A DNA stretch of 60,183 bases, the filler included, from Sluysia triapertura (lineage: Eukaryota): the NCBI GenBank assembly GCA_046118255.1. It is 4 parts of 4 records of this genome, joined end to end, with 100 filler letters (N's around TTAATTAATTAA, not from the genome) between each part and the next. Parts side by side here need not be neighbours in the genome. Positions count along the whole stretch, not along the records: positions 49,407 to 60,183 come from JBJNIA010193649.1; 3 more parts are not named here. One strand, written 5' to 3'. Shown here piece by piece: positions 3,587 through 60,183 of the stretch. The position numbers and the translations under genes were made by a program. The notes beneath the pieces are model-generated. The model was given only the letters and a program-made list of their open reading frames with translations. It was not told the origin of the DNA and made no database searches. The stretch's first letter is position 1. Each line of letters begins with the position of its first letter.

Positions 3587-3977
3587 TGTTAGACTTCATA
3601 AAATGGACTGACCGGGGATCATACCCGGGACCATCGCTGCGCAGTTCGATAGCTCTACCACTGAGCTATCAGCCCCGTCAAACGATTTTATTTTATTATA
3701 GTCAATTTTACCAAATGGCACTTTAGGCCTTTTTAACCCAACATATCTCACTAAATTCAATTATGTTTGTCCTCAAATATCATATAAATCATTAATTTCA
3801 ACATCAGAATGGTATTCGATATGTGGGCTCACCAAATGTTTGACTTCATAAAATTAACTGACCGAGGATCGAACCCGGGACCATTGCTCTGCAGTTCGAT
3901 TGCTCTATCACTGAGCTATCAGCCCGTCTGACGATTTTATTTTATTATAGTCAATTTTACCAAATGGAACTTTAGGC
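3587..3977 (-). mobile_element. TRIM-like non-autonomous LTR element with tRNA-derived LTRs (LTR 3837-3977, truncated; internal 3744-3836; LTR 3587-3743)
   Basis: Two direct repeats, the complete one with TGTT...AACA ends. Each holds a 72-nt tRNA-like unit (3604-3675, 3854-3925). On the minus strand the first LTR is followed by tt-TGGTGAGCCCACAT (PBS-like), and the second is preceded by a weak purine-rich AGTGAGATA. Confidence 0.7.
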
Positions 3978-4112
3978 AGCGTCCCTCAGCTAGAAAGTTT
4001 CCTTTAATCTTCTTAGCTCTATCTCTTTTCTTTTTTCTTACTGCTTATATAGCAGTTTATGATGCTTTTAAGAAATTAAAAATAAGAAATTGAACAAGAC
4101 GAAAATTAAAGC
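3974..4112. repeat. Unclassified interspersed repeat, copy 1; abuts and truncates the tRNA-LTR
   Basis: aggcagc(g/a)tccct...ctagaaagttt...actgcttat(a/g)tagcag...aattaaaaataagaaat(t/c)gaacaaga...aaattaaagc is shared with 22342-22506. Confidence 0.75.
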
Positions 4113-7100
4113 TATTTATTCTCTTTCAGTCGATAATAAGCCAACTGATTTTACTGATTGAATTTCGACAGCAATTTCCGTATATGTACAGATTAAATCT
4201 CATTATAATTATCTAATGATAATAGGATTTGTGGTAAGCAATCCATTTTATATTGTTAATATCATCTAATTAAAATTTAAAATCATTATTACAGTATCAA
4301 TTTGATATATATTTTACTAATACTCAGATATTGGAACATATTTAATCTTTAATTTTAAATTACAAAATTAATTAATTTTTACGTTATCTACATCGACGTG
4401 CTTGCAGCACTTCATCATTAAAACCACTAATAAAACTCAACATTATACACTTAATTTAATATCATTATATCATGAGCAAACATTTTTTATTGACTTATCA
4501 AATTAAATAAATTTTAATTAAGTAAATTAACAAAGGTACTTTAGTATTTTAACAAACAAAAACCTTGATTCAGGTATTTCATATACTTATCTTATCATTA
4601 CAATTTATCATAATCCCCTATCTCAATTCTTCAATGATGTTCACCTTATTCTGTTATCCTGAGTCTTGAACCTTTATATCTACCTTTACCTTCAATAATC
4701 CCAACAAATTACTTTAACTATGCTTAAATGTTAAATGTTCTACTCTGTTAAATTCCTTTTTTTAATAACAAAATATCAGACTTCCTTTCACTTCAAATAA
4801 TATTAAGAAAACATATCTTAACAAAAATATTATGATTTTCTTTCTATTTTAATAATCAAAAGAAAGCAAATTCAAAACTCTAAGGTGTATTATGTAACAA
4901 AATAGAATAGTCTTTTAACTAAAGCTGAATAATATAATAAATAATGCTAAAATAGATATAATAAATGACAAAAAACAATAAACTTTCAATAACAATATAT
5001 GATGTTAAATTATAATTAGAATTAACGTCTAATTTTTTAATATATGATTTTAACGTTAAAATTATTCATAACATAAAATTAGAGATATGTGAATTATAAA
5101 TTTGAGTAGGAAATTATTACTTATCAAAATAAGTGAACTTAGAATTACTAACTTACAAAATCTTCTTAAAAATCAGCAATCGGTTGTCTAAATCGTTCAA
5201 TAGATCAGGAGAAGTCTTTTTAAGAAACTTGTGCGATTGTTGTTTTATATCCACACAAAATTCAGATGTTGTTAGTTTTTAATTTAATTTATTTTATTTT
5301 AGGTACCATTAAAAATAAGTAAGTTTTGATTTATTTTTAATATAGTTAAATCAAATAGAAATCCAGAGCAAGACTAATTGTTTTTATTTACATTTATTTA
5401 ATATTTTGGGTAATTATTAATTATCATCCTCTTTATAATTTCAGACTTGGGTCGTTACATTACGATAAAAATTAATATTGTATTAATATAGAATAAATAA
5501 ACGAACGTGTAACTAAAAACTCTGAATTATTATGGTGAAAATTAATATTGTAAATTTGTATATTAATAATTTTGTAATTTAATTTTCTAAGTATAACATT
5601 TAGTAAATTTTAATAAACGCAGGATAATAATACATTTTTTCAATAAATTTTCTTGATACATACAACAAATAGTAATAAATTTAAAAGTAGTATAAAAGAA
5701 GTTTTACATACAATATTTTCTAAGCGATTATTAGACAATTTTTGATAGAGATTGGTTATTTTTCAACGATCTGGCTCAACCAACTCATTATTAACTAATG
5801 ATTTTATTCAACAATTTTAATTTGATTCGACCATTTCATTATCATTCAACGACTTCAGTAAACTATTCAAATAAACGATTTATTTTAACATTTTAATTTT
5901 AAATTTGAAGTTAAAAGTAAGTCTTACCTGAATTTAATAAAATACTAAATTAACTTTATCGATAAGGAAAAAATTAAAGTAACTGATAAATTCTTTCTTT
6001 TATATATTTACATATGAAATTTAATTGTTGTAGACTAACTGAAAAATAATTTTGTTTATATGTGTCAATAAATATTTAGTTTAAAAGTTTAGATTTTTGA
6101 AGAGATTAAGTAATAGTTATAGAATTTTAATTATGAACAAAGACAAGTATTGAACTTAATCACCAAAATTAAATTCATAAAAGAGATATTTAATAAATTA
6201 AACGGGGTGTTATTATACGTTTAAGATAAAGTCACAGAGAATTTAGGTTTAAGAAAGAAACTGGTAAAAGGTAAAAAAATTAGGTAAAGAATCATTTAAT
6301 AAAAGGTTAGATTTTAGAGCTCAGTCAGTAAAGAATTATGGAAAATAAATTTTGAGTGATTTGTTAGGTTATGAGTGAAATGTTAGGTAGTCATCACAAC
6401 CCTCTAAAATCATTAAAGAAAATTTTAAACATTTAAAATTACTTTAAAAATATTTATTTTCCAAAAAAGAAATTATTTTTCAAAAAAAAGAAAATTCACT
6501 TCTAAAAATAGAACAGAAGCTTCTAGAATATTCTAGAAAATTCTGTCGATTCCCATTGGCTGATGACTAGTGTATAACTAGCACCAATTTAATGAGATTC
6601 GCCATTTTTAAATTTTTAGTTTTTTTGTTAGCCATTTTCTTTTGTTCACGACATACTTAGTTAATCTATTGGCATCAGAACCAACTTTCCATGTATTGCG
6701 TAAGATATTTTTCTAAGATCATATAATATTTACATATTGTAAACTCTACGTAAAAATTTATTGTTAAACCTTAAGTTTTCCTCATACATTGAGGGATAAA
6801 ATACAAGAAGCATAATAAAAGACAATTAAAGGCCTCTACAACTTTAACTGTAACATTGAATTTTCGCCTTTTGATATCTTTGTTGTGGCTTAATATTATT
6901 AAAATTTCTTAAAGATTTTAGGTTAATATTAATTGGTTCATCAATGTAATTAGTCTTTAAAAAAAATAAATAATTGACAATCTCAAAAAAGGTAATATTT
7001 TTTAGAAACTTTGATTTTTCATTATACTTTTTCATTATAATTTCCAATAAGTTTTATTATGACATTTAAAATTTTTACATTTTATGTTTACAATTTGTTT

Positions 7101-8744
7101 TCCTTTGATATTCCCTAGAGAATGTTTCTGTTTGGATGTAATAAAAGTCCTAAAAAATATAATAAAATAAGATTGAAGTTCATATTTCTGATTACATTAA
7201 CACATTAACAAAATTAATTACTTTTAGCTTGATTGTAATATTGCCAATTGCACGTTCCAGAGTGTTGACGTATTCAGTTGATCGCGAGGAATTCGTTGAT
7301 TTGATCAGAGATTGTAGCAGAAAAACTGTATTGTGGTGATAAGCGTTGTTAATCAAGTACAATTGGTGATATCTGGATAGGATTTTGTTGAAATTGGAAT
7401 CTAGATTCAATTTTAGCTCCTTACAACTAATAATGTCTTGATTAGAGCAATCGTATATGTCATGTAAATTGGTTTGCACACTAATTAAACTTCGTTTTGA
7501 ATCTTTAATCATATAAGGCGGTTGCAGCATGAATCGTTACCTTTTGTTTTAAGGTTGTCAACAAACACTTGTAGTGACATAATAACATCCTTGATCATGT
7601 ATATATTGCGTCTTTAAAACTTGTTAAATATTAAACTTACTATTATTATCTTGATCAGTTTAAACCTTAATAATTTCAATAGTTAGTATATCAAGTATAA
7701 TTTTATCGGGATCTACCTTTGTAAGTATATCAATAACTATTATCTCAAATTCAAATTTTTGGAATAAAAATCAAAACTAAGTGGATAATGTACTATTAAA
7801 CAAAAAATTCATAACACAATTTATTATTAATGAAAATCTTTATTAAATGCTGATAATCACTCAAATGACGATAATGTTTATAATAAAATTAATAACACTA
7901 CAATCCAATTAAAACAAAACAACCAGGAGTGACGCAATAACCAAAAAGAATTGGATATCCAGAAGTTTAGAATAGTAATCTTAAATCAAAATATTTTAAA
8001 AATAAATTGTGCAGAATGTTGTCTCTAAAATCACTTTAAAATAACTGAAAATCAAAAGTATTTTAAATATATAATTCTTAACAAAAATTGTGCAGAGTTT
8101 CCTCTAAAATTACTGTAAAATAATGTAATATTAAAATTATCCGAATTAAAATAAAATTAATTAATAATATTATTCTAATAAAACAGCAAATAAACAAAAA
8201 TTAAAAAAATTTACTCTATGCATGGATTTTCTCCGGACATAAGTGAATCATCATTATTGTCATTGCATGTCTTATTAATATTGTGTCGTAAAAATTCTGA
8301 AACCCCTATTTTATACTCTCTCATCATCCAATCAATTCACAATCTCACAACAAAACACTCTTTCACACAAATCACCCAAACCTCTTTGAGAATCAAACCG
8401 ACAATAACAACTTTGACAACTACATGGCACGGTCTGTCAAACTCCACTAGGTACAAAACATAGAAAATCTGATTTATTATCAACCACCATTTCCTTTTAT
8501 TGTACTCAATCTATTTTTACTTAAATTACTTCTCACATTGAAATAACAATCAGCAATACTGTTAACATACATTAAAATAATGAATTTAATTTCACTTTTT
8601 ATTATTTAATTAATTTTCCATTTTTCACACCCAATTTTCTAATGAAAATGTTTTAAGGTTCTTATTCTCAAACGAACAATTTCACTCATAGATTCTCCTT
8701 TTTCAAAGCAATCATCTCATATTCCATTCATCACATTTGCATCA

Positions 8745-9330
8745 CTCTCAGTATTAAAAATTCAACATTCCATAATTAAAAATTAATTAAAATTTGACTT
8801 TGCTCATTATTAAGGCTTTCCTTGAATGAATTCGGTCAAACATTCAAAAGTTATTCACAAAACTTACTTTTTCTTAATTAATTTAATTAAGATTTTAATT
8901 AATTAATTTATTTTTAGACTTAGTTTTATTTTATGTCTACTACTTAATAAAGCTATTACTTAATAAAGGCATTCAGGAGGCTCTAGAAGTTTTAACCTTC
9001 ACCTTTCTGATTCTTTTTTCTACTTCTTCATGTTAATTATTACTGTGTTAAACTTATCTTTATTATCTTGAGCAATGATTTTATTTCTCAAATATTTTAA
9101 AGATTTTAAACACTTTATAATATTACTCAAAGATCTTAGATGTTTATCAAAGTTTCAAGAATATTTAGAGGTTAATAAGGTCTTAGATGATCTCAAGATT
9201 AACAAGCCCAAAGGTACTTTAATGCCATCAAAGGTTTTTCAAGTCCATTTCAAGCTTCAATAGGTCTTTCGAACTCCAAGGTATTCTTCAACTGTTAACA
9301 CTGTTATAGATGTTTTAACTTTCATGATTC
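8745..9330. repeat. Decayed coding-like repeat, copy A (inverted relative to 10140-10775)
   Basis: Colinear reverse-complement similarity, e.g. aaggcattcaggaggct vs agcctcctgaatgcctt and aatttgactttgctca vs tgagcaaagtcaaatt. ORFs 9075+ and 10449- translate to similar peptides. Confidence 0.75.
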
Positions 9331-9489
9331 TCAATCCAAGAATGTTTATAATGTTCAATCCATCACTTTGTATCAGTTACTTCTTAATTTTGTAGTTCTA
9401 TATGGTTCTCAGGCATTTTTTGATGCACAGTAGTGCAATCCCAACATCATGGATATTGTAGAAATAGAGCAGAAATCAGATTAGCAGAT

Positions 9490-9575
9490 ATTACATGTCC
9501 TACGATGTAGTTGAGCATCTGCTAGAGGTGTTTATGCGAAGTAGCAATAAGTGCAATATCATCTGCATGAGCAAG
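9490..9575 (-). mobile_element. Non-LTR retrotransposon reverse-transcriptase fragment
   Basis: Translates LAHADDIALIATSHKHL*QMLN, matching the LA(Y/F)ADD...LQxML motif. Confidence 0.65.
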
Positions 9576-9593
9576 TTAAGGGAAAAATGATAC

Positions 9594-9685
9594 CCACTGA
9601 CTTATCAGCCCTGTATGACAATTTTGTTTTATTATAGTCAATTATACTATCATTATTCTACGGCACTTTAGGCCTGTATCCAAAC
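9594..9685 (-). mobile_element. Degenerate partial copy of the tRNA-containing LTR
   Basis: ccactga-cttatcagccc...ttttattatagtcaatt...ggcactttaggcct matches 3657-3730. Confidence 0.65.
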
Positions 9686-9699
9686 TTATTTTTTCTAAA

Positions 9700-9820
9700 T
9701 CTTCATCAAAATCATCATCATTGTCATTAATAAGAAAATGGTGTCCATAATTTAGACTTTGATTCTTCTCCAATCAGTACCTCTTGTCGTTGGATAGTGC
9801 AATCTTCTTTGATTTCAATA
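9700..9820 (-). mobile_element. Polinton/Maverick-type protein-primed DNA polymerase B C-terminal remnant
   Basis: Translates KSKKIALSNDKRY*LEKNQSLNYGHHF, resembling the pPolB tail KxALSxxDDKRY...TLA(W/Y)GHY. Confidence 0.55.
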
Positions 9821-10139
9821 ATTTAATAATAATTTTTAACTTTAAAATTGGGAAGACATTTAGATTCTAAAGCTAAAAGTAAGTCATCTAATTTATCTAA
9901 CTTCCAATGTATACCCTATTTCACTATTTATAGTATCTGTATTTGGTAAATTTATTTATATTATAAATCCATTCAAAGATTATTCGGTAATTGATATGAT
10001 AAGATAGTATAACTATCGGTTCGTGCACAATGTTGTTGAAATGTGTCGTTTTATTGTGATTACCCAACCGTAGAAGAGAAGATGAATGGGAATTGCATGA
10101 AATCCTAAGTGCATGAAGAATTAATACAAAATGATGAAG

Positions 10140-10775
10140 ATGGAAACAATTATAATTGTGTTGAGAGTTGAATATTACCTTTGAATTCCAAAGACCTAAC
10201 TGAGATGTTGAGACATTGTGGAGGCTTGAGATGGATTTGAAGAACATCTAAAGGCATTAAGGTACCTTTAAATTTATGAACCTTGAGATCATCTGAGACT
10301 TCATTAACCTTTATATATTCTTGAAAATGTGTTAAACATCTAAGACCCTCGAGAAATCTTATAAAGTATTTAAAATCTTTAAGATATTTGAGAAACAAAA
10401 TCATTGTTATTGGTTTTAAGGATAAATATAGTATGGAAAGAATTAACATGTAGAAGTAGAAAAATGAATAAGAGAGGTGAAGGTGAAAACATCTACAGCC
10501 TCCTGAATGCCTTAATAAAAGCTTTAAACATAAAATAAAATTCTCTAAAAATAGATTAATTAATTAATAATCTTAATTAACTTAATTAAGGAAAAGTACG
10601 TTTTCGTGAATAATTTTTGAATGGGGAATTCTACATTAAATTGGAAACTGTGTATGTATTTGTTTTTAAAAGACCTTTTGATGAAAGTATGGTTTGAGTG
10701 AATTCATGCAAGGAAAGCCTTAATATTGAGCAAAGTCAAATTTTAATTAATTATGGAATGTTGAATTTTTTATAC
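10140..10775. repeat. Decayed coding-like repeat, copy B; the adjacent 10805-10925 also matches 4565-4690 in reverse
   Basis: Reverse-complement similarity to 8745-9330. ggataacagaatagg matches ccttattctgttatcc in reverse. Confidence 0.7.
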
Positions 10776-10945
10776 TTAGAATTGTTGGGATTGGTGAAGA
10801 ATAATGGTATATGTATAGGTCAAAACTAAGGATAACAGAATAGGTTCAGCATTATTAAAGAATTAAGATGAGGCATTATGATGAACTGCAATGGTAAGAT
10901 AAGCACATAAAATATTTAAATCGAAATAAAATAATGAGAGATACG

Positions 10946-11045
10946 NNNNNNNNNNNNNNNNNNNNNNNNNNNNNNNNNNNNNNNNNNNNTTAATTAATTA
11001 ANNNNNNNNNNNNNNNNNNNNNNNNNNNNNNNNNNNNNNNNNNNN
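10946..11045. other. Artificial contig linker N44-TTAATTAATTAA-N44
   Basis: Identical 100-nt spacer found three times; the 12-mer places stops in all six frames. Confidence 0.97.
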
Positions 11046-13620
11046 ATAAAGTATAGTGATAATTTGTTTAATCCAATGTCAACTGATTCCATGTTTCATG
11101 GTGCATTTCCATTTCCAACTAACAAGTCACTTTATCCTCCAAGTATTCAATATAATTTATTATCATTACAATATCAAAGGCCTCTCGGTATCAATAACGT
11201 ACGTTTCTTACATGAAAATTCTTGTTCCAGTCCTTTCCTAGAACACGTATTTTTATATTCGTTATTAATTATACATTTGTTTTATTGTTGTTTAATTTTC
11301 TTTGAAAAGATAACAAATTTTGTTAATTGGTCGAATTTCGTTACAATGTTAAATTGTCTAATTTTCGTAGGCCTTAAGCCTATTTTGTTAAATAAAATAA
11401 AAACATGTTCAAATTGTTTACGTTTATTTAATCCAAATAATTTATAAATTAAAATATTTTACGCCCTCCACACCTGTCAAGAACCGATTGCGTAAATTTA
11501 GGCTTTTAAGAATTTGTTTGAAAGCAAAAACTATTATTTTAAAATAATTTCATACAAAGTGTTAAATCAGATGTAATATATAGATGTTCGATTAGACTTT
11601 CATGTTCATAAATAAAGGAGTTATTTTTATTTATATAATTAACATAATTAATTATAATTAATTATTTATATAATTAATTATATTTATATAATTCATATAG
11701 GTTATTCGTTATACAATAAGTCCAAAATAATGAGTTTCATAACAAATGTTAATGTTAAAAAATTAAAAATATGAATATCAATTATTAAACATAAAAATTT
11801 AGCCTTCAAACATACAAGAGAACATTTTGAGTATCTTAACAAAATAAATTATTTCTGTCTATATTCCTAAATGCCTAAACTTATGCAATCCTCCTTCACA
11901 AGTTGTAACAATATACGTCTTTATTTTTTTAATCTATAGATAAGAAATTTAATATAAAATGAGAAAATAAGATTTTTAGTTATTTAAAGTTATGATATTA
12001 TAAAATTGTAATAGTAAAATTTTAAATAAATCTAAAATTATCTTAGTGAACTCAAAATAACCACCTTAAATATCCTAAAATTAAAAACGGAATGCAATAA
12101 CACAAATTTGAATTTGTCACATTTAAGTAACTGGTCAAAACTATTAAAAATCAAATATCTAATCAATATTTGTGTAAAGAGAAATACTTAATTGCAATTT
12201 GAAAAGAAAAGAAATATTTGCATGCATGTAGGAATGCCTGATTTAGTTCAGGATAAAATTTTGAGTAAAATCGTGTAATAATTTGCAGATATTTTAATAT
12301 TACCTTAAAGTCAGTCTAAACTTTATGCACTTTATTAAGTTTAGAAAGATAATTTTTAAATATTCACTTTTTCTTTGTATTCATTTACAGCAATTAAAGT
12401 TCGTCTATTTGGAATTTTTGATATTTAGATTAAGTAACGAATATTGGATAAGTAAATTCTACAGGTTTACCTACTCCGAGGTTATAAGATGTATACTATA
12501 GACGGACTTAGCATAAAATTAATTAAATTTACATTGTAATAACCCGGCATGTTTTTATAATTATTCTTCATAAGTGGACTAATCTAGATCATCGATTCAG
12601 TTTTATAAGTAAAGTTTATAATTTTATTTTTTAATTAAAAAATCCTTCAGTATAAATTTAAATGTTAATAAAATGATTCAACAAATGATTATATGAGAGA
12701 GATTTATGTAAATTGTAAAATTACATTCAATAAATGGAAGAATAAAGACCCAAATAAATTGTTTAATCATGATAGATCAAATTATTTTTAACCAATTTAT
12801 ACCAAATAAAAATTTGTTTCTGTTCCACTAGTTTTATATCGATTTTATATATCAGATTCATTTAACTTTAGAGTGACTGAGATTGGGAAGTATAAGTCAG
12901 ATAATAAATAAATCGAATTTTATAAAATTTCGAATTAGACACAAAAATGTCAATATTCCTAAATTTTATCAATTTTTGAGTTTTATCAAATTCATCAAGA
13001 ATATTCTTATCTATAATATCCTTTACATCTATTAACAAAAATAGAGTAGTTGCAGCCAACATTTCCGAGTGATTAATTTTATGTAATGAAAATAAAAAAT
13101 GAAGATTTGCCTTCTTTTCGACTATCAATCATTTGGGAGTAAATTAAAAAAATTATACAACAGTACGGACATCTGAATTAAATATATTGTGCTCATAAGA
13201 CAAAATGAAATAAATTATAATTCAGATGATACGATTAGATAGCTTTACTAAGTGTACATGCACCAATACAGCAGAATATTATAAGGATTTGATACTTTTA
13301 TTGAATTTTTCTTTTTACTAAACATTTATTTCTAATCAATACTAAAAAATAATTGGCCATCACTTTCATTATCATTTTCATTTAAGATAATGACTGTTGA
13401 TTAATTTTCATCCTAATTAATAGAAGTGTACTAATAAAAATTAAAAAGTTAATTAAGTTTTTCAAGGTGATCAGAATTTTGAAATTTTTTATTAAGGATC
13501 TTAAATACTTGAGAACAAAAACAGAATAGTTCCTGGGTTATGTTGTATTGTTAAAATGGAATGACTTACACATAATTGATAATATTAGTAATAATATAAT
13601 TAAAAATAATAATAATGCAA

Positions 13621-13668
<48 letters not shown>
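13621..13668. repeat. (AAT)n microsatellite
   Basis: Perfect trinucleotide run. Confidence 0.98.
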
Positions 13669-13669
<1 letters not shown>

Positions 13670-13799
13670 CGTTAAATCTAGAATCAAGACATTATTAATG
13701 TAAACATTTTAAAATTAATTGTTATACAATTTATACAAATTCATAGATAATAAGGTTATGTACCTTTAGTTTCAAAAAATAAACTAGCTACCAGCTAAT

Positions 13800-13950
13800 G
13801 TTAAATTACTGAAAATTATGAAATATTTAATAAATGATAAAGTTATTTCTATTTCAGAAATATAATGAATGATTTATTTTAAGCGCTTTTGAGTGCTTAT
13901 TTAAACAGTAGATTTTAGCGTGTTATAAATTAACGTATTTTTATTATTGA
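13800..13950 (+). mobile_element. 3' end of an L2/CR1-type LINE
   Basis: taagcgcttttgagt...cagtaga...agcg...ataaattaa matches the tail of the LINE at 35520-36180 (reverse). Confidence 0.6.
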
Positions 13951-16911
13951 TTTATTAATTAAGGCTTGGAAACTGTGATAAACGTTCTAAGGTAAGAGCA
14001 CATTAATTAATTTAATTAATGTTTTTTGAAATATATTCAGCTAAAAGTGATATTTCTAGAAAATTCATGCACTAAATGAAATAACAGTTTTTCACAATAA
14101 CTTTTCACAATCTAGCTAAGAAAATTAATAGAAATAACACAAAAATTATTTTAATTAATTTTATAAGTTTAAAACAAATTTATTTCATAGAATGAAGGGA
14201 AAATGAAAGGCATATACAAAACGAAACTTTGATATGATTTCGAATCGAATGGTCACTTTCTAGGAAAACGTAATGTTAACATATTACATATCTTTAAAAG
14301 TTATTATAAATATGAAAAACTATCTAAATTTAAGTAGACTAATACAATGTTAATTAATGTTTAAGCGAGTAGTCAAAAGAAATATAATTAATCAAATTAA
14401 TCATTATTAGAAGATTAGTTACTAGACGTTAATTTATCAAAAGATTTTCGGCTTGAGTAAACTCAGAGATTGGCTATGCCTATACGTCAAAGCAATTGCG
14501 CTGAGGTAGCCAAATTCACATTTGCATGCATAACAGTTAATTATAAGGCCTATAATTCGGCCATTTTGTTTTGAATAATTTTATTTTAATTATTATTATA
14601 GTATTACTTTTTTTAAATATTATTATTATATTATTAATATTACTTAATTTTTTTTATTTGCAAACTTTTTCTAGAATTCTTCTTAATACACAAACTTCTA
14701 CATAAAATTAACTAATTATTTGATGTTTGGATTGAAGGTATTTCGTAGAATGAAAGAGTATTAACTTCTTTTCTTCTTATTTTAAGTACATTCTTTATGT
14801 TTGATCTTTAATTTCTTCGTACACGAAGTCTGAATCATTTCATATATTATTTGGTATTTACGTATCAGATAGTTTAGTAATGTTTAAATTGATGTTATAA
14901 ATTGTGAGTATATGATGCACGACGCATAAAGAATTATTTAGCGATTTCTAGACCTGTGATAAGTGCATTTACTTATTTATATTGTAATGTTTTAATATTA
15001 TGTAAATATAATTTATTCACGTTTTAGGTGATCTTTAGGATGAGTTTATTAAGTATTCTAAAAATGTGTGGATATAAAGTAAATTAAATGAGTTATGTTA
15101 TAATCTATGTTATATTTTAATATTGTATTCATGTCAGTTGTTTGGTTTTATGCAGGGTGAATTTGTCTAATATTATTATTATTATCATTTAATTTCTACG
15201 TAATCAATAAAAACATGATGACGTATTAACATGGTGAATTTTACATAAAGCATAAATTATACTCAAAAAAGATTTTCAAAATAACTAATAAAAGATTGAA
15301 ATGAAACAAAAATAAAATATAAATAAAAATTATAAATATAATAAAGTTTTTCATAATAATAATAATAATTTAAAAATTTTTATACCAGCAAGAATAACAA
15401 AACAGACTAATAAATTTTAATAATAATAGTAAAAATAATTTAATAATAATTTGTTAAAAATAATTTAATATTTGTTAAATTCTTAAAATTAAGTTTTAAT
15501 ATTTACAAATTTTGTTTGGAATATCAAAGGCTGTGGAATGTTGTTTGAATAAAAGAAAGAGATTTTAATATTAAAAAGTTAAATAAAATTGAAATAAAAA
15601 AGAATTAAGAATTATTTAGAGGTTTTAGATATTGGCTCGTGCATTTATAACTGAACGCTTATTTGTGATAGTTGTGCTTTAATTTTGTGATAATTGATAA
15701 GTGCGATTTATTATTTTGATTATTGTGTTTAAATGTGAATAATTTAGCAAATAATAATATTGTTAAATACACAACATATCGAATCAATAAGCAAAATTGA
15801 CAGTACGGTAAAACAAATAATTTAGAAATTTCTATGATAAGTTTTATTTTTATATATTACACTAACAATCTTAACCAATCATTTGCGTATAATATTAAAT
15901 TAAACTGAAATCTTAAGAACCGTTTAGACATTTCTTTAAACACGTTTATGAAAAGGAAGAAATCAAATTGATGATGTTCCATTAATTAAATGAATAAAAT
16001 AATTTTTATAATAATTTTAATCAATAACAAAAAATAAAATCAAATCTTTTAATAATGAAATTTTTACAATTCATATTTAGTCATAATAACAATATTACAA
16101 TAAGTTATTGGTATATTTAATGATTATGACTATAATAATCATGCCAATCAATAAATAATACAGTTACCTTGACTTGGCTATACGAATAGATGATAGATTT
16201 ATTCGAATGGGCTTTGCTTAAGTTGAATGTCAAAAAAATAAAGGATTATTTAAACTATTATTATAATTGTGGTTACGTCATGAAACATCGAATAACCATG
16301 TTTTAATTTGATTTTGCATCAAAAGTTTAATAGCATGTATTTGAATTATATTATTACTATTAATGTTATTATAATCATCAAAATTGTAATTATTATTAGT
16401 GTAAAATAGGATATAGCAGATTAATGATATTACATTTTCTGTGTTATCAGTAAAATAATAAAAATAGAATATATTCAAACAATTAAGATACATTACCGAG
16501 TTTTATTTTATTATTACAATGTGATAACTAATCTTAATTTCCTAACAAAGTTTAATACATTGTATTTTGATTAATTTTTTGTATTGTATTTGCGGTGGTT
16601 CAGCCGACGACTACGTACACATCACATAAATCAATAACACGCAAACCTTGCCTATATCATTCATAACATTACATTATTCATCGCTCCTTCAACATTATAA
16701 ATTCACATATACCTAATAAAATTTGTTTCATTAACATTCTAAATTAGAACAGTAAGCATGACACCCACTGTCAGCCTGTCGTCATTGTAGCACACCTTTT
16801 CTCGTGTCTAAAATTTTCCATTTTTATATTTTATATTTTTTACAATTTTATATTTTTGCGATTGTATAATTACAAAATTATATAATTGCAAAAATATAAA
16901 ATTATATAATT

Positions 16912-17149
16912 TTTTTAAAGAAATTAATTACTGATTCAGGCCCAGGTAGAGTGATGAAAAGATTGGTTAAAAATGTTGTTGTTTTCTTATCAGTGCTATT
17001 AAGTTTATAATCATTCTACCTGGGCCTGAACCAATGAGTGATACTTCACAAACAATTATAAACTTAATAGTACTGATAAGAAAAACATTTTAAATCAATC
17101 TTTTCGTCACTCTACCTGGGTCTGAACCAGTAATTAATTTCTTTAAAAA
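16912..17149. repeat. Nested ~238-bp hairpin (MITE-like) with a third copy of its core motif in the loop
   Basis: Arms ttttaaagaaattaattactgattcaggcccaggtagagtga... and ...tcactctacctgggtctgaaccagtaattaatttctttaaaa. An extra tctacctgggcctgaacca lies at about 17015-17033. Confidence 0.85.
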
Positions 17150-17369
17150 TAAGTTTTGCACAACTAAATCAATCTTTATATCATCACATACTCACGGTCT
17201 TCGTCAAATATTTTAAAATAACATTCAATATGATATTTTGTACCATAAAAACTACAAAATAAGAATCGATATTTATCATGAAAACATAGTCTTATAACAG
17301 AATTTGTCATTAGGACAAATATTGCATCGATGACTGAAATATGAATGTTAAATTTGTTTCAGATTGTTA

Positions 17370-17810
17370 ACCAGTTTGAGGTTCATGAGATAAATATTGT
17401 CCAACGAAATTGTTCGCTGTACTTGAAAGATACTCTGACTGGGGTGGTTGCAATACAAATTGTACAATCTTTTCCATGACTTAACTTAAATTTAATATTT
17501 GAATTATAATAATCTCGGGTGATTGAATCACATGTTCCGAGGATTATTTAACATTGGAATATTTTTCTTCCCAAAAATCCAATTTAGAACAAACATATGC
17601 ATCAACTGATTGCAGTTTATCAGTAGCTATTAGCTCTACTTTATTGATAACCTTCAATTGATTTTCACTCCATGTTAAAGTAGAACTAAGTATAATTTTG
17701 ATTCTTTATCCCTTGATAATATTCACGGGATAATCAGCTAGCCTTGACAATGACTTTAAACCACTATTATTTAGCTGAGAAGTTTCTTCCAGAATATTAT
17801 TATCAATCAT
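17370..17810 (-). pseudogene. Perilipin (PAT-domain)-like gene fragment inside the foldback element
   Basis: Translates ...LSRLADYPV...LSSTLTWSENQLK...LQSVDAYVCSKLDFWEEKYSNVK*SSEHVI..., then after frameshifts SEQ/FVGQYLSHE. Perilipin motifs are RVxxLP, YACKGLDxIEExLPILxQP and SExxVDQYLP. Stops at 17706-08 and 17544-46. Confidence 0.6.
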
Positions 17811-19066
17811 AGAGTAAATAGTCTTGAAAGCTTTTTAAAACATTTTGAAATAACTTTAAAATTATGATGCCCTATTGCATAGGTCATTGCTTTGACCTGT
17901 ACCTTTCATGTAAACAAAAAATAATCTTTTTCAGATATAGCATAAAATTAAAAATTATAAAAATTCGAAATTACAAGATATCTAAATATAAAATATAAAA
18001 TTATATAATTATGTAATTATACAATTGCAAAAATATAAAATTATGCAATTATAGAATTATAAAATTGTAAAAAATATAAAATATAAAAATGGAAAAATTT
18101 TAGACACGAGAAAAGGTGTTGTGCTACAATGACGATGGGCTGACGTGGGTATCATGCTTACTGTTCTAATTTAGAATGTTAGTGAAACAAATTTTATTAG
18201 GCATGTGTGAATTTATAATGTTGAAGGAGCAATGAATAATGTAGTGTTATGAATGATATAGGCAAGACATGTTGTAATGTATTTTTGCAATGATGTTTGT
18301 GTGTTATTGATTGATATGATTTATGTGATGTGTACGCAGTCGTCAGTTGACCCACCACATTATTATACTTGACGTTGATTTCGAAACTGGAGATCGAAAT
18401 CTGATCTCAAAGACCGCAACTGATGTCATGGCAAAAGATTTTAGAAAGGTAGAAAAAAAAATATAATGAATAATGTTTAACAAAAAATCAGTGTTTAAAA
18501 TATTAATAAAAAACCACTTTTGGAACAATTAATTCAGTTAATTAAGGAGTGTAAAGTATGGTCCCAATAATTGTTTAGAAAAATGATGGTAAAAATTGTT
18601 TGAAAAATGAAACATTATAATGCTGGTAAACGATAAATCAACAATGCTAAAGTTTACACTTTTCATCAAAAACAATATTGAAACATAAAATGGAGTAAAA
18701 CTATATGATGATCTACCTTAATCAGAGTTGATATTCCATGCTTTTCAAAAAAATTGACAAATAAGAACTTTAGATGACTCAGTTGATGCGGAAAAGAATT
18801 TGAAATCACTCTAAGTAAAGGACACACTACTACACAGAGTGTAAAATGTTACTTAATGGAAAAGTCAAAACTAATGAACAGTAAAATAAAAGCGCAAACG
18901 TAATTGTTTAAAATTAAAGGAAAATAAATACCGAAAATAAAATAAGTACGATTACATATGTCTTAGAGTGAAAAAACATTTTTAATGTTTTCCCATACTT
19001 AGGAAAATGTATTGTTTATACAAAAATGCATATACATTAGGAAAAATTCAAACAAAAAAGACAAAC

Positions 19067-20886
19067 CTCTAACATGCAATCAACCCAACCCCCATGACCC
19101 ACTTGCAAATTCCGTACTATATCCAAGTCAAGATCAATTACAACTCGATTTCCCATTTGAATACCTTGACTCGTACCTCCAGAATTTGTAAATCCTAACA
19201 ATGGTAAATGATCTTTGTAAACAGAAAGCCCTTTAGCTTCTACCACAACCTGAAATCAAAAAATATATTCTAAATTGTTATTTTAAGATTACTATTAAGT
19301 TATGGAAAAATTACACAAAAGTGAGGTTTTCCTCGCGTTTTATTAAGCGCAGCCTGCTTGCAGAATTTATTTCAGTTTGTTTAGCTAAAATATTTTGTTA
19401 AAGTTAACATAAATTAATAATTGACTCAGTTGGAGAAAAAAATTAAAAACTATATTTCCATACCAGAGACAAGTCAAAAGTACGCACAATAATTTACAGT
19501 TATAATCATAAAATAAAGTGAGTAAAGATAATGAAACATCGATTTTCAATAAAAATATAAACCTAAGGTATAAATTATCTCATTATTTAAAATATCACTA
19601 AGAATACAATTCATATAATATAAAGAAAAAAATTTTTAAAAATTAATTCACAATGTGCACTGAGAACAATTACCGCATATCATGCTTAAAAACAAAATAA
19701 TAAAAACATTTTAATTATGTCTTTTAAAATTTTATGTATTTCATTATATGTTCATTACTAGAATGCGATATTATAAGATTCTACCATCATTTATTTTATT
19801 GTGATTAAAATGTTTATTTCTTCCTCAATAATTTTTATTTAAAACTATTAATTAAACTGTTAACTATACCTTTAAATCTGACATTCCATCATGACCCACT
19901 CGATAAAGATTTTTGCCACCACATTCCCAAATAACATAAGCAGCCGATCTCGAAGAGCTACCACACCAATCTTGAATTTCTGTAACTTTACCTTTATGAC
20001 CTGCCCCTCCGTCTTGATCACTCCATTGCCAATCTACACCACGAACAACTCGAGCACCTGTGAACAATCCTTTGCATAACAATTTTTTACTTTTCCGACG
20101 ACATTCTACAACCATTTTACTAAAAAATAAAAACCTTTATGTTTGTAATGTAATACACAACTTTAAATTATGAATGTTATAATAATTATATTATAACTAT
20201 AATAATGAATGTCACAAGGATTGTGTTATTTTACTTAAGTCGCATAATTTTAATATAAAGAAATATACAAATAAAATACAAATATGATAAAGTAAATATG
20301 ATAAATACAAATGAAACTCATTACAAATTTACCTTCATGAAATTTTAATAAATTCAAAAAACTTATGAATTAATACAAAATAAATAAAAACGGAGAATAA
20401 AACTTACGAAGTATTATTTGGATATATAATTCTAACAAAACGATGGCGTAAGTTATGCCGATCTCCATGATAACATAAAGAACATAAATCTGTATTTAAG
20501 CATTCAATACATTTCCAGCGAATACCTGTAATTGGATTCTAAATCAAAAATATGCATTTGATTAACAAATTTAAATTCTTTAAATACAAAACAATATGTT
20601 TAGTAAGAAATATTCAACATACCTGATGACAATATTCACACTTTACGTCAGCATGTCTCACTCCAGTGGGTGCATTATCAACTATGCGTAAATCATAATT
20701 TGAACCACATCTATAATTTGCAGCAGTGCCATTATCCCAAACAACGACAACTTCTTCGGCAGATTCAAAACTTCGTACAGTTCCCATATGACCTTCACCA
20801 CCATCTTGGCGATTCCATTTCCAATCTGGTCCTCTCATAACACGACTCCCAATGTCATCTTGGAGAAATTTTTGAGTTGCTGACAT
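19067..20886 (-). CDS. mib1: E3 ubiquitin ligase mind bomb, 5' part (exons 20886-20623, 20538-20408, 20119-19870, 19249-19067): MIB/HERC2, ZZ finger, MIB/HERC2, start of MIB repeat
   Basis: [21 protein letters not shown]...[17 protein letters not shown] finger [16 protein letters not shown]...[36 protein letters not shown], and YKDHLPLLG...LQVGHGGW. All junctions are GT-AG with consistent phases. Downstream exons were not found. Confidence 0.95.
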
Positions 20887-50432: not shown

Positions 50433-50568
50433 TGTTGGGGTAAAAAGCCTAAAGTGCCATTTGGTAAAATTGTTAGACGGGGCTGATAGCTCAGTGGTAG
50501 AGCATCGAACTGCGCAACGAGAGGTCCCGGGTTCGATCACCGGTCAGTCCATTTTATTAAGTCTAACA
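50433..50568 (+). mobile_element. Solo tRNA-containing LTR (tRNA-like unit 50480-50551)
   Basis: TGTTGGGG...CTAACA ends. GGGCTGA/TCAGTCC acceptor stem, A box TAGCTCAGTGG, B box GGTTCGATC, then TTTT. No TSD retained. Confidence 0.8.
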
Positions 50569-51378: not shown

Positions 51379-54300
51379 TCAACAGCTTGGTGATAGTCTT
51401 AAACCTCCATCAATTCTTATAAATGCGCCATTTATCATTCGATTTTCAGTAATCTTTTGAACACAATGAGCAAATTCATCTGGATTTCCAAATCGTTCCG
51501 GATATAATGTGTAAAAAACATAAAAATCTTTTAATTTAGGACACATACTTTCATTTCCATCATTCGTAAAAATGCCTAAATTAAAATTTACAATATTTAT
51601 TCGGAAATATGTTCATGTTAATTTAAAAATAAATATAATTATTACGTATATTAAATTACTTTAACGAAGAAAGAAATTAAATTAATACCAGATAACAGTT
51701 AACATAAACGAAATTAGACAGACTAACGAAACTGATATCTAAACTTATTTTAAAAAATTGTTTCATCGTTTAAATTTTGTTATAAATAAAATAATTTTAA
51801 TTTATTATATTTTTCTTTCTAACAAGGGATTGGTAACAGAAATAGTGGACAGAATAGAGAGTTATAAAATAAAAGTATTCTTTAAAATAATCGAATAAAG
51901 TATTTGATCTTGAAGCGTAGATATATAAAATAAATAAAGGTCCAGATAAAGAATAGAAATTTAATTAAGCAATTAGTAACTAATAAACACCTCCATCTCG
52001 AGTAACTGAGACGAGTATTCGAGTTCACACTTCCAGATAAGGCAAATGTAATAGACAAAGTATAGATATTTTTGCAGAGTTAATCAATAGAGAAAATTTA
52101 CATTAGTAAAAGATTGTAAATCCAAGTAGTAATATAAAGTGAGAATGCTATTAAAGAAGTTTAGATTATTACTAAAAAATAAGAGTTCATTACAAGCACA
52201 TACAAATTCTGTAAAATAAAATACAACATAATAAAACCACATTAATATTTTTTACACACTCTACAATATGACATTGTACTGCTATCATTTTGTTACTGTA
52301 TTATTGTTCTATCACTATGTTATTGTTATTATTCCTTTTTTCTTTCTCCTGTTACTTTATAACTCTCTCTATTATTTTAGTATTACTTCTTTTGTTAAGT
52401 ACTACCACCCCCTGCTGCTCAATAAGGTACTGTGATCGCTGAACCATCGTAGATGTCTAACAATTGTGGTCAAATTTAAATGGAAGTTCCAACAATTTTA
52501 GTAATACTGAATTAAATTAACTATGTCTTTAGCAGATTTTTAAGGTTTGAAATGATAAAATTGTTAAATTCGTAACGTAATATTGGTTTGCTTAATTTTT
52601 GAGCTTAATAGTTTGAACAAATTTTTAAATTAATTATGTAATAACATAGTAAACAAATTTAAAATAATAATATAGTTTACATCACATATATAAACAAAAT
52701 TTCATCTCTAACATATATCAAAACATACTCTGCATATGCCATTGAATAGCATTACTTAATTCCAATAACTTTAAGCACATCTAAACTATTACTTTTATTT
52801 ATTACCATTATTAAATTTTAACTTTTCTAAAACATTAGTCATTCTGATGAAATCTAAAAATTCAATTATTATTATTATTGTACAATTCGAAAAAGGTAGA
52901 TGCCATCATAAACATTAAAGATTGCAATGAGTCTTATTATAACGATAATAAGTAATTAGCAATGCTTTAATTCACATTTTACAGTTATATATATTCTAAA
53001 GCTAAGTCACTTGTTTAATGGGTTATTGAAAATACATTGTGACCCTGCTTAATGAATTTTGAGAGTGAACCAAAAGTGTTCAAAATGAAGAATCTGTTTA
53101 AGATATTCATTATTCAGAAGTTTTGAATTCTGAAGTTCATGACTATAGTATCGATTTTTATAGGTTTTCAACTGGTGAAAGTGAAGACAATTCGAAAACA
53201 TGGAAAGATTACAAAATGAAGTTTTACCTAGAATCGTTCGTTTCTTAAAAACAGAATAATAAATTTTTAAGGTTACTTTAAACAATCAACTGTTGAAGCA
53301 AAACCCAATTGGATAGAGTAGAATGTATTGAGAAAGTATATGAATTAAATTAGAAAAGGCGTAAAAGCTTAATTTTGATTCATTGAGCCTGCGATACTGG
53401 TTGTACAGATATAGCTAAATATTTACTCGATATTGATGTTTCTTTTAAATTATTGAGTTCAAAATACGTTTCTCTATTTGTTTGATTGCTTATCAAAAGA
53501 GAAAGAGAAATGATTTATTAGACCAAGTTCGATTAATGCGATCACTAAAATACCATGATATATCTAGTATTAAAGATAATTCTCTTAGTAATTTATGCCT
53601 TAATATAAAAGTTTGTAAACGAAACAATGAATCAATTAATAAATTATTTTTAAAAAAAGTTTTCGTTATATTTTTAGAATGTTTTAAAGCATCTATGGTC
53701 CACCATTTGCGTGATGCTCTAAATTGTTCGCACGATGAACATATTATTTATGAAGCGCTGCCTCCTTTTTCTGCATATGTGGAAAAGAACGCTATTACGT
53801 TAGAACATTATTTTACGCTCTGTGATCCAAATTAGACTTTAAATATTCTAAATATTTTTTTAAAAATACAATAAATCTGTGCTTACTTTGTAATCTATAA
53901 CGATAATAACATCAAAGTTAAAAATTCCTTAATCACTATAATAAAAATAAAGTAGTCATTATTAAGTACGTTATAATGATACAATTAAATGTCCTCAAAT
54001 GTCATTAAATTTAAAGCTTAAAGCACTAAAAGTTAAACATTACTTTCACAGTATTCGCATAGTATTTTATAAAAAGTAATATACAAAATATTTTGTGACA
54101 TTTTAATAATTTTTACTTAATTAAATCAGTAAATAAAATTTAGAAAATGAAATTTTTTTGCTTTTAATAATAAAATAATTTAGAGAAATTTCTTTCTTCT
54201 AAATATTGATTCCCTTTGTTTAAAATATCATAAATTATTTGTTATAATTATGTTTCTACAAATTCAGCAATATTGTTTCATTTTGTTAAGTCATTTTTTC

Positions 54301-57300
54301 AACAAAAAATTTGATTCATATTGTTTTTCATATTAGTTAGTTTAAATTTTATAAGGCTCTTCATTCTTCCGTGGAAAAAATCCACGTTAACATCTTTTTG
54401 TAATTACTTTTGTCGATTTAATGAGGGCTAAAGTCACGTCAAGATCCTAAAACTAAGACTATCGTCACAATAATATAAATATAATTTTCTTTTATAAATT
54501 TAATATAATAAAAATATTAATATTATTATCACTAGCGTTTGGTCACAAAATAAGAGTATATGGTACTCCGTAGTAACATCAAGACAGAGTACATATGTGT
54601 ACTCATAATATCAGGCAATATAAATAAGCAATTATGCGCATTAAAGATTCATTATTTTATTTTTAATTTGTGCAACAATATCAACTTTTATAATTATTAT
54701 ACAATTGTTACGATTAAATTGAAATATTATTATACAATTTTAAAAATACAATCTTTGGTGTTGTGAGACAAATTTTTAGTTAAAGTAATCAAATCTGAAG
54801 GAATAATTTTACTGTTCAAAGATATTACAAAGATAAGAATATCTAAGACTTTAGTTTTGGTTATTTAAGTCTTTCTCTACATAATATAGACTTGAAATCT
54901 ACGAAATTTCCTGATATTTTTTAACATTTTAAAACATCCGTAAAATTATTATTTAGATTAATTTATAATTTACCTTAAATTATAAACTTTATATAACTAT
55001 CTACTAGTCATCTCTGTATACCTATTTATTAACTTGATTAATTGAAGTATTCCGTATAGAAATTATTTTATTTTGTTAACCCCTCCCCAAACGAGTAAAA
55101 TAAACGCGTTAAGTTTGCAAATCATTTTTAAATAGGATCTAAAATAAACGAGTGTAAATTTTAGAGCTGCAATTTCATAAAATCCATCTATTTTGTAAAT
55201 ATTTTACCGTCAGTTTAAATACTCAAAAAGTACTCAAATATATTAATACTAAAAAAAGTATTCAAATATATTAATACTAAGGAGTTAATAAAAACTCAAT
55301 CAGAATAAGCATAGCAAATTACATAAAATTAGCAAGATTTATAAGATTATCACGTTTCGAGTAACCTAATTGACCGGTCTCCAAGAACTGCACACTATTT
55401 ATAAATTTATAAGTCACTATGCTTACCCATTCGACCATACTTGAATATTTTATACTTAAATCCTGCGGTCGAGCACTTAATTGCGTGAGACTTTGATCAC
55501 ACGCGAAGCCTTAAAATATTAAAATAATTGCGACAATAGGCTTTCATTAAGAAACCACATCAATCTCATTAAATATCATATAAAACTAAAAGAAATTAAA
55601 GGCAAAGGTCTTTAATTTTAAAATAAACCTCCACATATTTAATTCAGCTATCTGTTTATTTTCATTTTGATTTGTAATATTTTGAAATTTTTTCGAATAA
55701 AATATTAAGTAATTTTAAGTTCTTATTTTTGCTAATAGGGAAATACATAGAAGATAGATACAAAATACCCATGACACTAAATTAACATATTTTAATAAAT
55801 AAAATGGTAGTTTTAACATTTTTACTCTGCATAATTAAATTCATAATTGCAAACGCGCTTACTACACGTTATAAATCACAGATTATAGATGAACCTATTA
55901 GGATTACTTATTTTCCTTTTGAGAAGTTCAAAAGTTTTGTCATTATATATATCAGGTGTGCGCAGACTTTTTAACATACTTATTTTTGGCGCCCCTAAAT
56001 TAATAAAAAAATCACTATAAAAAACTTCATAAATAAAATAAATACCTTTTTAATAACAAAATGTATTTTTCTGTTTCTTATAAATTAAGTATTATTAATT
56101 AATATTAAATAATTCTTTAGGAAAAATAAAGAAAAATTAGCAAAATTGAATTTTAATTCTTTATATCAATAATGCAATATTGAGTCTGTTATTATTTCAC
56201 TTCTGTGAAATTTCAATATTTTTTCAACATGTCGCTGCTATTTCGCGATTGTGATAGCAGGCTGCTAACGTTATTTTTAATTAGCAGCTAAAATACCAAA
56301 TAGCATAACATCTCTAGTGCACATGTATAATTGCTTTGAATTTGTAATTGTATTTGCTTTGAAATTTTATTCTTGATTATTGTTCTCCATCAAGAACGTA
56401 AATTATGGAATTAGATGATGGAATTACTTGAATTGGTAAAAAACAAAAAATATTTAAATAAAAAACAAAACTTTGTAAAATCTAACAATCCGGGGGTTCG
56501 ACCCCTTGTTTGCGCACCTTTAATACATATAACCTCATATGATATTTAATTTTAATAAAACTCAGAGGACATATGGAGTGCTTATAAAATATTGCTTAGA
56601 TTATCTAACCAGTAAAAATAATAACAAGTATCTGAAATATGTAAAACCAACCTAACATATTATTTAGATTTATCAGTAAAAAAATTTTTTTCAATAATTT
56701 AATTCTCTACATAATTTATCTACGATACACCATTAATTTTTAACTTACATATAACACTTTCAACACAAACTTACCAGGACATATAGTATTAATTCTGATT
56801 CCTAAATCTTTCAGTTCACGTATTATTGGCAATACCATAGAATGTTCAGCTTCAAAATTTCCAGAACATAAAGTATGACCAGACTGGCCATCTGTACTCT
56901 GAATACCTGTTACATTCACAATTACACCACGTTCACCATCGTCATCTGGAGCATTATCTTTGAAAAGCTCACAAGCCATTTGTATTAAAGAGAATGTATT
57001 ATAAATATTACTCTGTTGAAATATTAAAATTTAATTTCACATTAGATTATTTTAAATAATCAAAATAATTATAACAGTTTATCTGGCGCCACTTTTGGGT
57101 GTTTTGATAATACAGCCTTTATATATCTGAATATAACCGAACAGATGACCTACATATTTTAAACATTTAATCTAATTTAGATGTATTACTCACTCTAATC
57201 AAAGTGGAAAGATAATTGTGACTGCATTACTTACAAACCATTAAATCAAAATAAATAATAATCATATTAAATTACTTCACACTTGAAGTGCATAATTTAA

Positions 57301-58395: not shown

Positions 58396-58659
58396 GTTAT
58401 TTAAAAATATAATACATAAATGAAAAAAATTAACCAAATAAATAAAAAATTTAAAAATTAAAAAATTAAAAAATAAAATAAAATAATAATAAAACTTTTT
58501 ATTTCAATATTCTTAAATAGCATAATAAAGATCATCTATAACATTTATAAAAATAGTATTTTTAAACAAAATTCATAAAATTATAAGTTAATTCTTTTTT
58601 GATGACAAATAACATAATTATGAATAATTTTTGAGTAAATTAAGAAAAAATACACTTAA

Positions 58660-59710
58660 TGTAGTCTACGAGAGCAAATGAGACATCTCTATGATAAAGT
58701 ATATGTGACAAGTTACAAATGTATTGTTATGGCGTTTATTATAAATTGTATGATTTGGAAGATTATATCTAATGTGATTATATAAATTTATCAGTAACGG
58801 TTTATTATAAAATTATTTGGGAGTTCTGACCACAACATTTGAAAAAGTGAAATTTTTGGCAGACTAATGAGTGAAGTACTATATATCTTCTAAATGTAAA
58901 AAATTTGAGGTACAAATAAGACAAGAATCAGAGTGCACCAATGAATTACTAGTAACATATGGGAAATTACAAACATATTTAGAACCGGTTACACCAGTAT
59001 TACTACCGAATGATAAAATTAAGCCAAAAACTATGCATTGTTCAAACGTCATGGCACACGAGTACAGGATATGTTAGACTTCGTAAAATGGACTGACCGG
59101 GGATCGAACCCGGGACCATCGCTGCGCTGTTCAAATGCTCAGCCCAATCTAACAGTTTTATTTTATTATTGTCAATTTTACCAAATGGTACCTTAGGCCT
59201 TTTTACCCCAACAGATAGATGACAACTTATGGATTTCTCTACCATATAGAAGTCTGGTTAAAACACCAGAAGTTATAGGTTTAACTGAATTAAAAGGTAA
59301 ATTAAAATTTTTAGCAACAAAAAATATTCATAATTCTGGTATTTATACTAATGATGACATACAAGCCGCATGGCATGAAATTTTATTCCCAATTAAGATG
59401 TCTATGGTTTTAACAGACATTGTAGATAAGACAATTGTAGAGAAAGATGGTCAAGTTAATTTTGAACTATTATTAGGACCTGATCATTTTAAGAAAGCTG
59501 CTCAGAATACATTAAGACAGATTTTTGGGGTAGTTTCTTAGTTTTAGGACAAGCTTTTTCTGGTTTAATAGGAATTTATATTATTATTAAGCTAATAGCT
59601 TTGATCATATCTCAAGTATTTTCTGTTTAGGAATATATAAGTTATCAGGATTAACCTGGCGATTAATCATATTATGTTTTCCTTTCTTAGTTAAATATTT
59701 ACTTCATCAC
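58660..59710 (+). pseudogene. Endogenous chuvirus/gB-like envelope glycoprotein, C-terminal half, frameshifted and interrupted
   Basis: REQMRHLYDKV...EVLYI/SKCKKFEVQIRQESECTNELLVTY...YLEPVT...CS...EYRI[insert]DDNLW...NSGIYTNDDI...IFIP...LLGPD...TM-like LGQAFSGLIGIYIIIKLIALII...YKLSGLTWRLIILCFP. This follows the motif order I recall for chuvirus-type glycoproteins. Confidence 0.7.
59072..59213 (-). mobile_element. Solo tRNA-containing LTR with a 4-bp TSD (GATA) inserted in env
   Basis: gata|TGTTAG...CCAACA|gata. Removing the element and one TSD restores the frame EYRI-DDNLWISLP. The D-arm/A box is deleted in this copy. Confidence 0.9.
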
Positions 59711-59949
59711 AATGCAAATTCTCAGATAAACGCGTTAAAAAAGGAGCGCACCCAAGTTAATGAAAACACGTTATTACAGAACACGAATACGATTCAAAAT
59801 AGTGAAGTTCAGGAAGAAAACACGGAAGATATTAAAGAAAGTAAAGAAGAACCAAAAGACAATAAACATCTTTTATATCCAATTCCTCCAAAGTCACCAC
59901 CCAAGAATGTACTCTATATGATTTGTGCCAATAATAATTATTATGGTGC

Positions 59950-60183
59950 GAAACGACCGATGGTTAAAATAAGAATCAATTGTATGATAATTTCAGTATT
60001 TAATTGACAAAGGAGTGGTATCCTCCTTAATAAATGAATCTTTCTTAACAAGTGAAGAACTTCACAATTTAAAGGACCATGTTTCCAATTTCGAAGGTGT
60101 AACGGTAGATGCTATAAAAATAGTAGGAGTGATGAAAGCATTTTGTGAATTAGGAAAAAACAAGTTTGAAATAAAATTAAGAG
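59950..60183 (+). pseudogene. Retropepsin-like aspartic protease, frameshifted, runs off the window
   Basis: KRPMVKIRINCMIISV/LIDKGVVSSLINE...FEGVTVDAIKIVG fits RPxxxIxINGxxxxxLIDTGAxxSLI...IxIxG. Confidence 0.7.

Follow-up and report, generated by a model that had tools for sequence, protein, structure and literature searches.

How does a viral-type envelope (env) glycoprotein come to lie directly ahead of an aspartic protease in animal DNA? This arrangement occupies the end of a 60,183-nucleotide stretch from Sluysia triapertura (GCA_046118255.1), which was analysed whole and is called the window here. A preliminary description had read it as an env-protease polyprotein, meaning either a second protease or an env-first gene order. 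We conclude, with a probability of roughly 0.88, that the window ends in a broken internal fragment (env tail, linker and protease) that derives from a Ty3/gypsy LTR retrotransposon, of Burro or GAG-ENV-POL type and likely present in many copies. Intact members of this family would likely encode Gag, env, protease (PR), reverse transcriptase (RT), RNase H (RH) and integrase (IN) as one polyprotein. The window copy contributes the env tail, linker and protease; the placement of gag, RT and integrase is taken from relatives. The gypsy assignment follows from the gypsy-type pol of these relatives, that of P0154 being closest to Ty3 (Ty3 Gag-Pol as best solved match, E 3e-130).

The window consists of animal DNA that is rich in AT (about 24% GC) and carries intron-split host genes, and the GC content of its final 1.3 kb is slightly higher (30-32%). 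Minus-strand exons of a short-chain dehydrogenase, which we take to be HSD17B10-like, lie at 58395 (start codon), 56743-57030 and 51382-51612 (Pfam adh_short E 2.4e-5 for one exon). The env fragment starts about 450 bases upstream of the apparent start codon of this gene, on the opposite strand. Minus-strand exons of Mind bomb (MIB1) at 19867-20886 are 64-74% identical to arthropod and vertebrate proteins alike (best 120 of 487 matches), which gives no lean for or against the earlier suggestion of a probably non-arthropod host. The host appears to be a long-branch animal, because MIB1 identity to animal proteins is at most 74% among the matches listed. Inverted repeats at 8755-10778 and 16647-18266 (299 nt at 81%, 122 nt at 95%) resemble DNA transposon ends, transposase-like frames can be recognized by eye at 30859-32000, and ARAGORN placed a tRNA-like sequence at 50480-50551 whose anticodon is not clear. 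No long direct repeat of the env-protease region was found within the window.

The fragment at the window end is composed of the following features.

58846..58890, plus strand: first recognisable env codons, in a 5'-truncated ectodomain (profile positions ~376-395 of 641, E 9e-5; tblastn with P0008 and P0020), with a frameshift at the end.
58892..59071, plus strand: env ectodomain piece (PF24664 positions 382-437, E 3.4e-7; env profile).
59072..59213, no strand assigned: 142-bp TG...CA insertion, a Helenus-like solo repeat that interrupts env (tRNA-like core, 4-bp target duplication).
59215..59529, plus strand: C-terminal part of the env ectodomain (PF24664 positions 441-544, E 7.6e-7; open frame 59197-59538), with a frameshift at the end.
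59529..59627, plus strand: likely env transmembrane anchor, in a different frame (Pfam positions 533-571), with a frameshift at the end.
59627..59779, plus strand: the weaker of two hydrophobic segments, leading into the env tail (profile positions 586-636, E 3.6e-14).
59780..59950, plus strand: acidic linker with a Leu-Tyr-Pro motif (from translation; the Tyr codon, at 59876, precedes the catalytic Asp by about 43 codons).
59951..60183, plus strand: aspartic protease of retropepsin type, truncated where the window ends (profile of relatives' proteases; frameshift near 59,999; D-K-G at 60006-60014).

The envelope homology was found with Pfam and with a profile built from relatives. PF24664 (Monjiviricetes_fusion) matched three frames from 58,892 to 59,620 (E 2.5e-7 to 2e-4), and the env profile matched down to E 1e-31. 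Env could be mapped continuously from about 58,846 to 59,779 (profile positions 376-636 of 641), across the insertion and frameshifts near 58,891, 59,529 and 59,627. The window copy thus retains the C-terminal 40% of an envelope protein of the chuvirus/herpes-gB type. Its 59215-59529 piece is 27-46% identical to 39 relatives in a profile comparison, and the region at 59627..59779 is 34% identical to P0001 over 107 aa. A structural model of the env relative P0007 (mean pLDDT 66) had herpesvirus gB as its best match (E 3.5e-11), with TM-scores of only ~0.25-0.3. The env profile gave no match 5' of 58,846, and the copy is therefore 5'-truncated. Env had been described as starting at 58660; its presence is confirmed by PF24664 and the profile, but homology begins only at about 58,846. 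The depth of family contigs climbs from ~58,860. A search of metagenome contigs with the 114-residue env frame returned 187 pattern matches, of which none was confirmed.

The stop-free frame reported at 59591-60007 is present, with 138 codons whose translation contains a hydrophobic segment, the acidic linker, LYPIPPKSPPK and RPMVKIRIN. A frame of this length arose in 1 of 2000 shuffles of the local 969 nt, and shuffles of the whole window (n=40) held a mean of 0.05 such frames. Two details of the frame had to be revised. Although it is open throughout, its first ~12 codons are out of register, and homology starts near 59,627. The hydrophobic segment attributed to env is there as well, but it is the weaker, charged one, and the likely anchor lies one frameshift earlier at 59,529-59,627. 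Relatives show the same pair of segments (12 measured, 14 tried): KD19 is 1.57-2.41 for the anchor equivalent and 1.01-1.58 for the second segment, which carries 1-2 charges.

The 142-bp insertion is flanked by the same 4 bases at 59068-59071 and 59214-59217, and contigs of other env copies lack it. Similar copies lie at 3587-3743, from 3837 onward and from 9594 onward. Its core, which we take to be tRNA-like, was judged by eye from a B-box-like stretch. A SINE was considered and set aside in view of the TG...CA ends and the 4-bp duplication. These ends, the tRNA-like core and the 4-bp target duplication are shared with the Helenus TRIM, as its defining features are given in the accessible part of the source (PMC10886601). 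A Helenus TRIM has two repeats enclosing a primer-binding site and a polypurine tract, whereas the insertion in env is a single repeat only.

The protease was scored with a profile of 24 protease domains from relatives, from which P0011 at 483 (a ubiquitin-like domain) was left out. The last 95 residues of the window, with X at the frameshift, reached 27.7 bits, compared with at most 9.6 in the 990 shuffles of 1000 that were scored; the match covers the N-terminal strands and the flap of a retropepsin. The piece 3' of the frameshift alone gave 22.7 bits and the in-frame part alone (~15 residues) 1.3 bits. The protease does continue past one frameshift, near 59,999, as had been proposed. The proposal that env is in frame with a retropepsin stands in that the open frame reaches the first strands, but just ~15 protease residues worth 1.3 bits lie in that frame. 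The claim of a shared frame rests on these residues in the window copy and therefore needs support from the family. Pfam found no protease family in the window, and pairwise BLAST of the window protease against P0001 was not significant (E 1.5). The catalytic triad lies after the frameshift and reads D-K-G, not the D-[TS]-G that is kept in 55 of the 56 protease domains detected in relatives by a profile seeded on that motif. Judged from its sequence, the window protease is a pseudogene of the retropepsin family and not an active enzyme.

From 58846 to 60182 the copy carries four frameshifts and one 142-bp insertion. Its aligned stretches (~395 codons) contain no in-frame stop, yet there are the four frameshifts and a difference of ~11% from the contigs of other copies described below. 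Some of the frameshifts may stem from the assembly, or subfamily differences may make up part of the ~11% divergence. The window copy is broken and unable to make an intact polyprotein.

In such a damaged copy, the env-protease junction might be an accident, a deletion or nested insertion that joined an env-last element to a pol fragment. The truncation, insertion and frameshifts show that this copy has been rearranged, and many single-copy deletion joints occur in the region in one sequencing run (X1). We aligned contigs from four runs (X1-X4) to 58,600-60,183, taking bridging as continuity of the alignment, which says nothing on stop codons. In X2 and X3, single contigs spanned 59,546-60,183 (638 letters, 70 differences, 10 gap letters) and extended 700-800 bases further. 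One contig in X4 spanned 59,674-60,122. The contigs of these three runs carry the env tail and protease in one piece and are ~11% unlike the window copy. In the deepest X1 contig across the linker (depth 2,398), gaps total zero. Because X2-X4 show X1 variants at a depth ~1/100 to 1/1000 of that in X1, they may represent carry-over and are not counted as separate species. Summed depth at the junction in X1, which is not a copy number, was 3,600-20,000, compared with ~17-36 in low-depth contigs. The env-protease fragment likely comes from a high-copy family. The junction is not private to the window copy, since contigs of other copies bridge env tail and protease. The bridging contigs and the in-register gaps of other copies, the same junction and spacing in 10/10 long relatives, and a Tyr-Pro motif conserved in the linker make an accidental origin extremely improbable.

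We examined the family through its proteins. A word-index search of longer proteins with the 114-residue env frame yielded 172 candidates and no match, and an exhaustive representative search then gave 26 matches. Of these, 25 contained env, and P0025, without an env match, was left out. A second search with an env+PR query among proteins of 1,570-4,997 residues returned 16 proteins, 12 of them new and all with env and protease; its length limit and query favour polyproteins. Every env relative that reaches at least 150 residues past env (10/10) has a protease there in the same ORF. Six of the 25 env matches (P0007, P0012, P0018, P0019, P0022 and P0023) stop within 35 residues of where env ends, and nine stop before that; either group may be truncated or may really end there. 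Some of those six could be true env-last forms or stand-alone envelope genes. The spacing from anchor to catalytic Asp is 154 codons in the window and 125-208 in compact relatives.

The env-first polyprotein of the preliminary description was borne out in this family. All 15 RT-bearing relatives encode env, protease and RT-RH-IN in this order in one ORF, P0020 stopping before integrase; their RT regions are 61-95% identical, and they are therefore not fully independent. P0160 reads CCHC, ubiquitin-like, Bcl-2-like, env, PR, ankyrin, PR, RT, RH, IN. CCHC knuckles (the Gag zinc knuckle) precede env in several relatives, including P0155 and P0160. Besides the query, a ubiquitin-like domain upstream of env was matched 12 times among 26 proteins, and a Bcl-2-like domain gave three clear matches. 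P0006, a 2,627-residue env-PR-RT-RH-IN polyprotein, is listed as a hypothetical protein from a metagenome bin assigned to Flavobacteriaceae, a bacterial bin into which animal DNA has likely strayed. P0163 has an immunoglobulin-like domain 3' of integrase (Pfam Ig_3, E 1.5e-5), and several relatives have a C-terminal extension resembling a membrane protein.

The env of Anakin elements sits downstream of pol. An Anakin-type BEL/Pao element with such a 3' env, or an endogenised chuvirus-type glycoprotein gene, could also have come to lie beside an unrelated protease. PF24664 is the family of Monjiviricetes fusion proteins and is shared with Anakin, and such captures are known in mosquitoes, where Anakin denotes BEL/Pao elements with a chuvirus glycoprotein (accessible parts of PMC7642597, PMC10084718 and PMC12440569). 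However, the nearest relatives of the window copy are gypsy polyproteins, and, unlike in Anakin, their pol is gypsy rather than BEL/Pao and env precedes the protease. Pfam scans of 38 relatives reported no BEL/Pao protease family, and env and protease share a frame. We consider such an origin very unlikely.

The relatives also bear on the suggestion of a second protease. They include P0002, P0030, P0152-P0158, P0160 and P0161, whose single ORFs span 2,600-4,800 residues and contain 1-7 retropepsin domains. Between env and RT, 2-5 proteases were found in 11/15 RT-bearing relatives and a single one in 4/15; another protease (one or two) follows integrase in 8/15. In a protease tree built without four near-duplicate proteins and domains shorter than 70 residues, 13/13 RT-proximal proteases fell on one side of a split with 95/92 support, and most extra copies fell on the other. 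The window protease could accordingly be an extra copy beside env, dedicated to env release, with the usual protease further downstream before RT. The frequency of additional proteases in relatives, their separation from the RT-proximal copies and the near-universal D-[TS]-G motif favour this variant. Four relatives nevertheless have one protease only, at the position of that in the window. The window piece itself reached 24.2 bits with the RT-proximal class as reference and 21.5 with the first-extra class, a weak lean to the usual type from a classifier that was right in 25/26 leave-one-out tests. Second proteases are thus common in the family, and for the window copy we hold the extra-protease assignment as tentative, at somewhat below even odds.

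The linker is variable in relatives apart from a hydrophobic-Tyr-Pro motif. This motif lies ahead of the first protease in 21/24 relatives and at 59873-59881 in the window. It lies 30-63 residues ahead of the Asp of the first protease, a range chosen after looking; in shuffles, a mean of 3.4 and a maximum of 10 relatives had the motif there. The forms YPx[LI] or YPxxx[LI] occur in 16 of the 21 motif-bearing relatives, versus ~6 expected from a 16% Leu/Ile background; the window copy does not fit them. Aromatic-Pro pairs are cleavage sites of retroviral proteases. YPXnL is a late domain that binds ALIX (accessible part of PMC12789967). On sequence grounds, the hydrophobic-Tyr-Pro motif may be a protease cut site or a YPXnL late domain for ALIX. 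In the literature on late domains, judged by titles, we found no Tyr-Pro motif in Burro-like or GAG-ENV-POL elements.

The preferred reading, a fragment of a Gag-Env-Pol polyprotein, suggests how an envelope protein could function between two cytosolic parts. Gag would be made in the cytosol. A predicted internal signal peptide just 5' of env would direct the gB-like ectodomain into the ER, and signal peptidase would free the ectodomain. A hydrophobic stretch precedes the env start in 19/19 relatives in which a start motif was found (20 tried), as expected of an internal signal peptide. The anchor helix would act as a stop-transfer sequence, with the weaker second segment on the cytosolic face. 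Linker, protease and Pol would lie in the cytosol, the place where they have to work, because the chain would cross the membrane once. The membrane-tethered protease would dimerise and then separate itself and Pol from the env tail, for which the conserved Tyr-Pro is a possible cleavage point. In an enveloped particle, env would act as the fusogen.

A bolder extension, which we regard as speculative and rather unlikely, is that Burro-like elements are enveloped invertebrate viruses. They would use a single polyprotein in which additional proteases have long been maintained, including one tethered behind env for its release. Tyr-Pro would be an ALIX-type late domain, with budding driven from the envelope side and not by Gag, and the window would hold a fossil of this module of env tail, late domain and protease.

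As found, the window copy adds another decayed example of an unusual but known layout and is mainly useful for repeat annotation of this genome. The comparison with relatives adds two testable details on the cutting and budding of a Gag-Env-Pol polyprotein, namely several intact-looking proteases and a conserved Tyr-Pro. Should either act as proposed, this would account for the way in which these elements cope with the topology of a polyprotein that has an envelope protein in its middle. Only two leads, the multiple proteases and the Tyr-Pro motif, were not found by us in print, and both are features of the family, not of the broken window copy. Multiple proteases per LTR element were not found in the literature, judged by titles and the opening of abstracts, although the figures and most supplements of PMC13524379 may cover them.

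We compared the window copy with known systems through the accessible parts of their descriptions. Troyka was considered in this way and then dropped. The planarian Burro (GYPSM1) elements of Arkhipova and Yushenova (2019; PMC6431247) are giant Ty3/gypsy elements with an internal region of up to 25 kb. Their env is placed between gag and pol without a break in frame, is flanked by Bcl-2-like and protease domains, and matches mononegavirus fusion proteins. Decayed copies with stops and frameshifts are described from Dugesia japonica. Chary and Hayashi (2026; PMC13524379) described GAG-ENV-POL gypsy errantiviruses with an HSV/gB-type env in Nematoda, Bryozoa and Platyhelminthes, with one Schmidtea element present in as many as 215 intact copies. 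The novelty that had been implied for the env-first order therefore falls away, as the order is already in print in both papers. The main text of PMC13524379 uses "protease" once and "in-frame", "fused", "polyprotein" and "Burro" not at all, and its supplements or figures may cover these.

Two features of Burro-like and GAG-ENV-POL elements could be checked in the window, and both are present: a chuvirus/HSV gB-type env, and env directly 5' of protease and in frame. Gag, ubiquitin-like and Bcl-2-like domains are missing from the truncated window copy and are found 5' of env in P0155 and P0160. We call the fragment Burro-like and not Burro because the comparison was with the published description and covered these two features of the window. 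In contrast to Burro, 1.3 kb of the element is known here, and the accessible Burro description names one PR and mentions neither multiple proteases nor a Tyr-Pro motif. Like Burro, the family places env and then protease in one ORF, and the ubiquitin-like, Bcl-2-like and ankyrin domains of relatives follow Burro's published order. With the elements of PMC13524379 it shares gene order, gB-type env, gypsy pol and high copy number.
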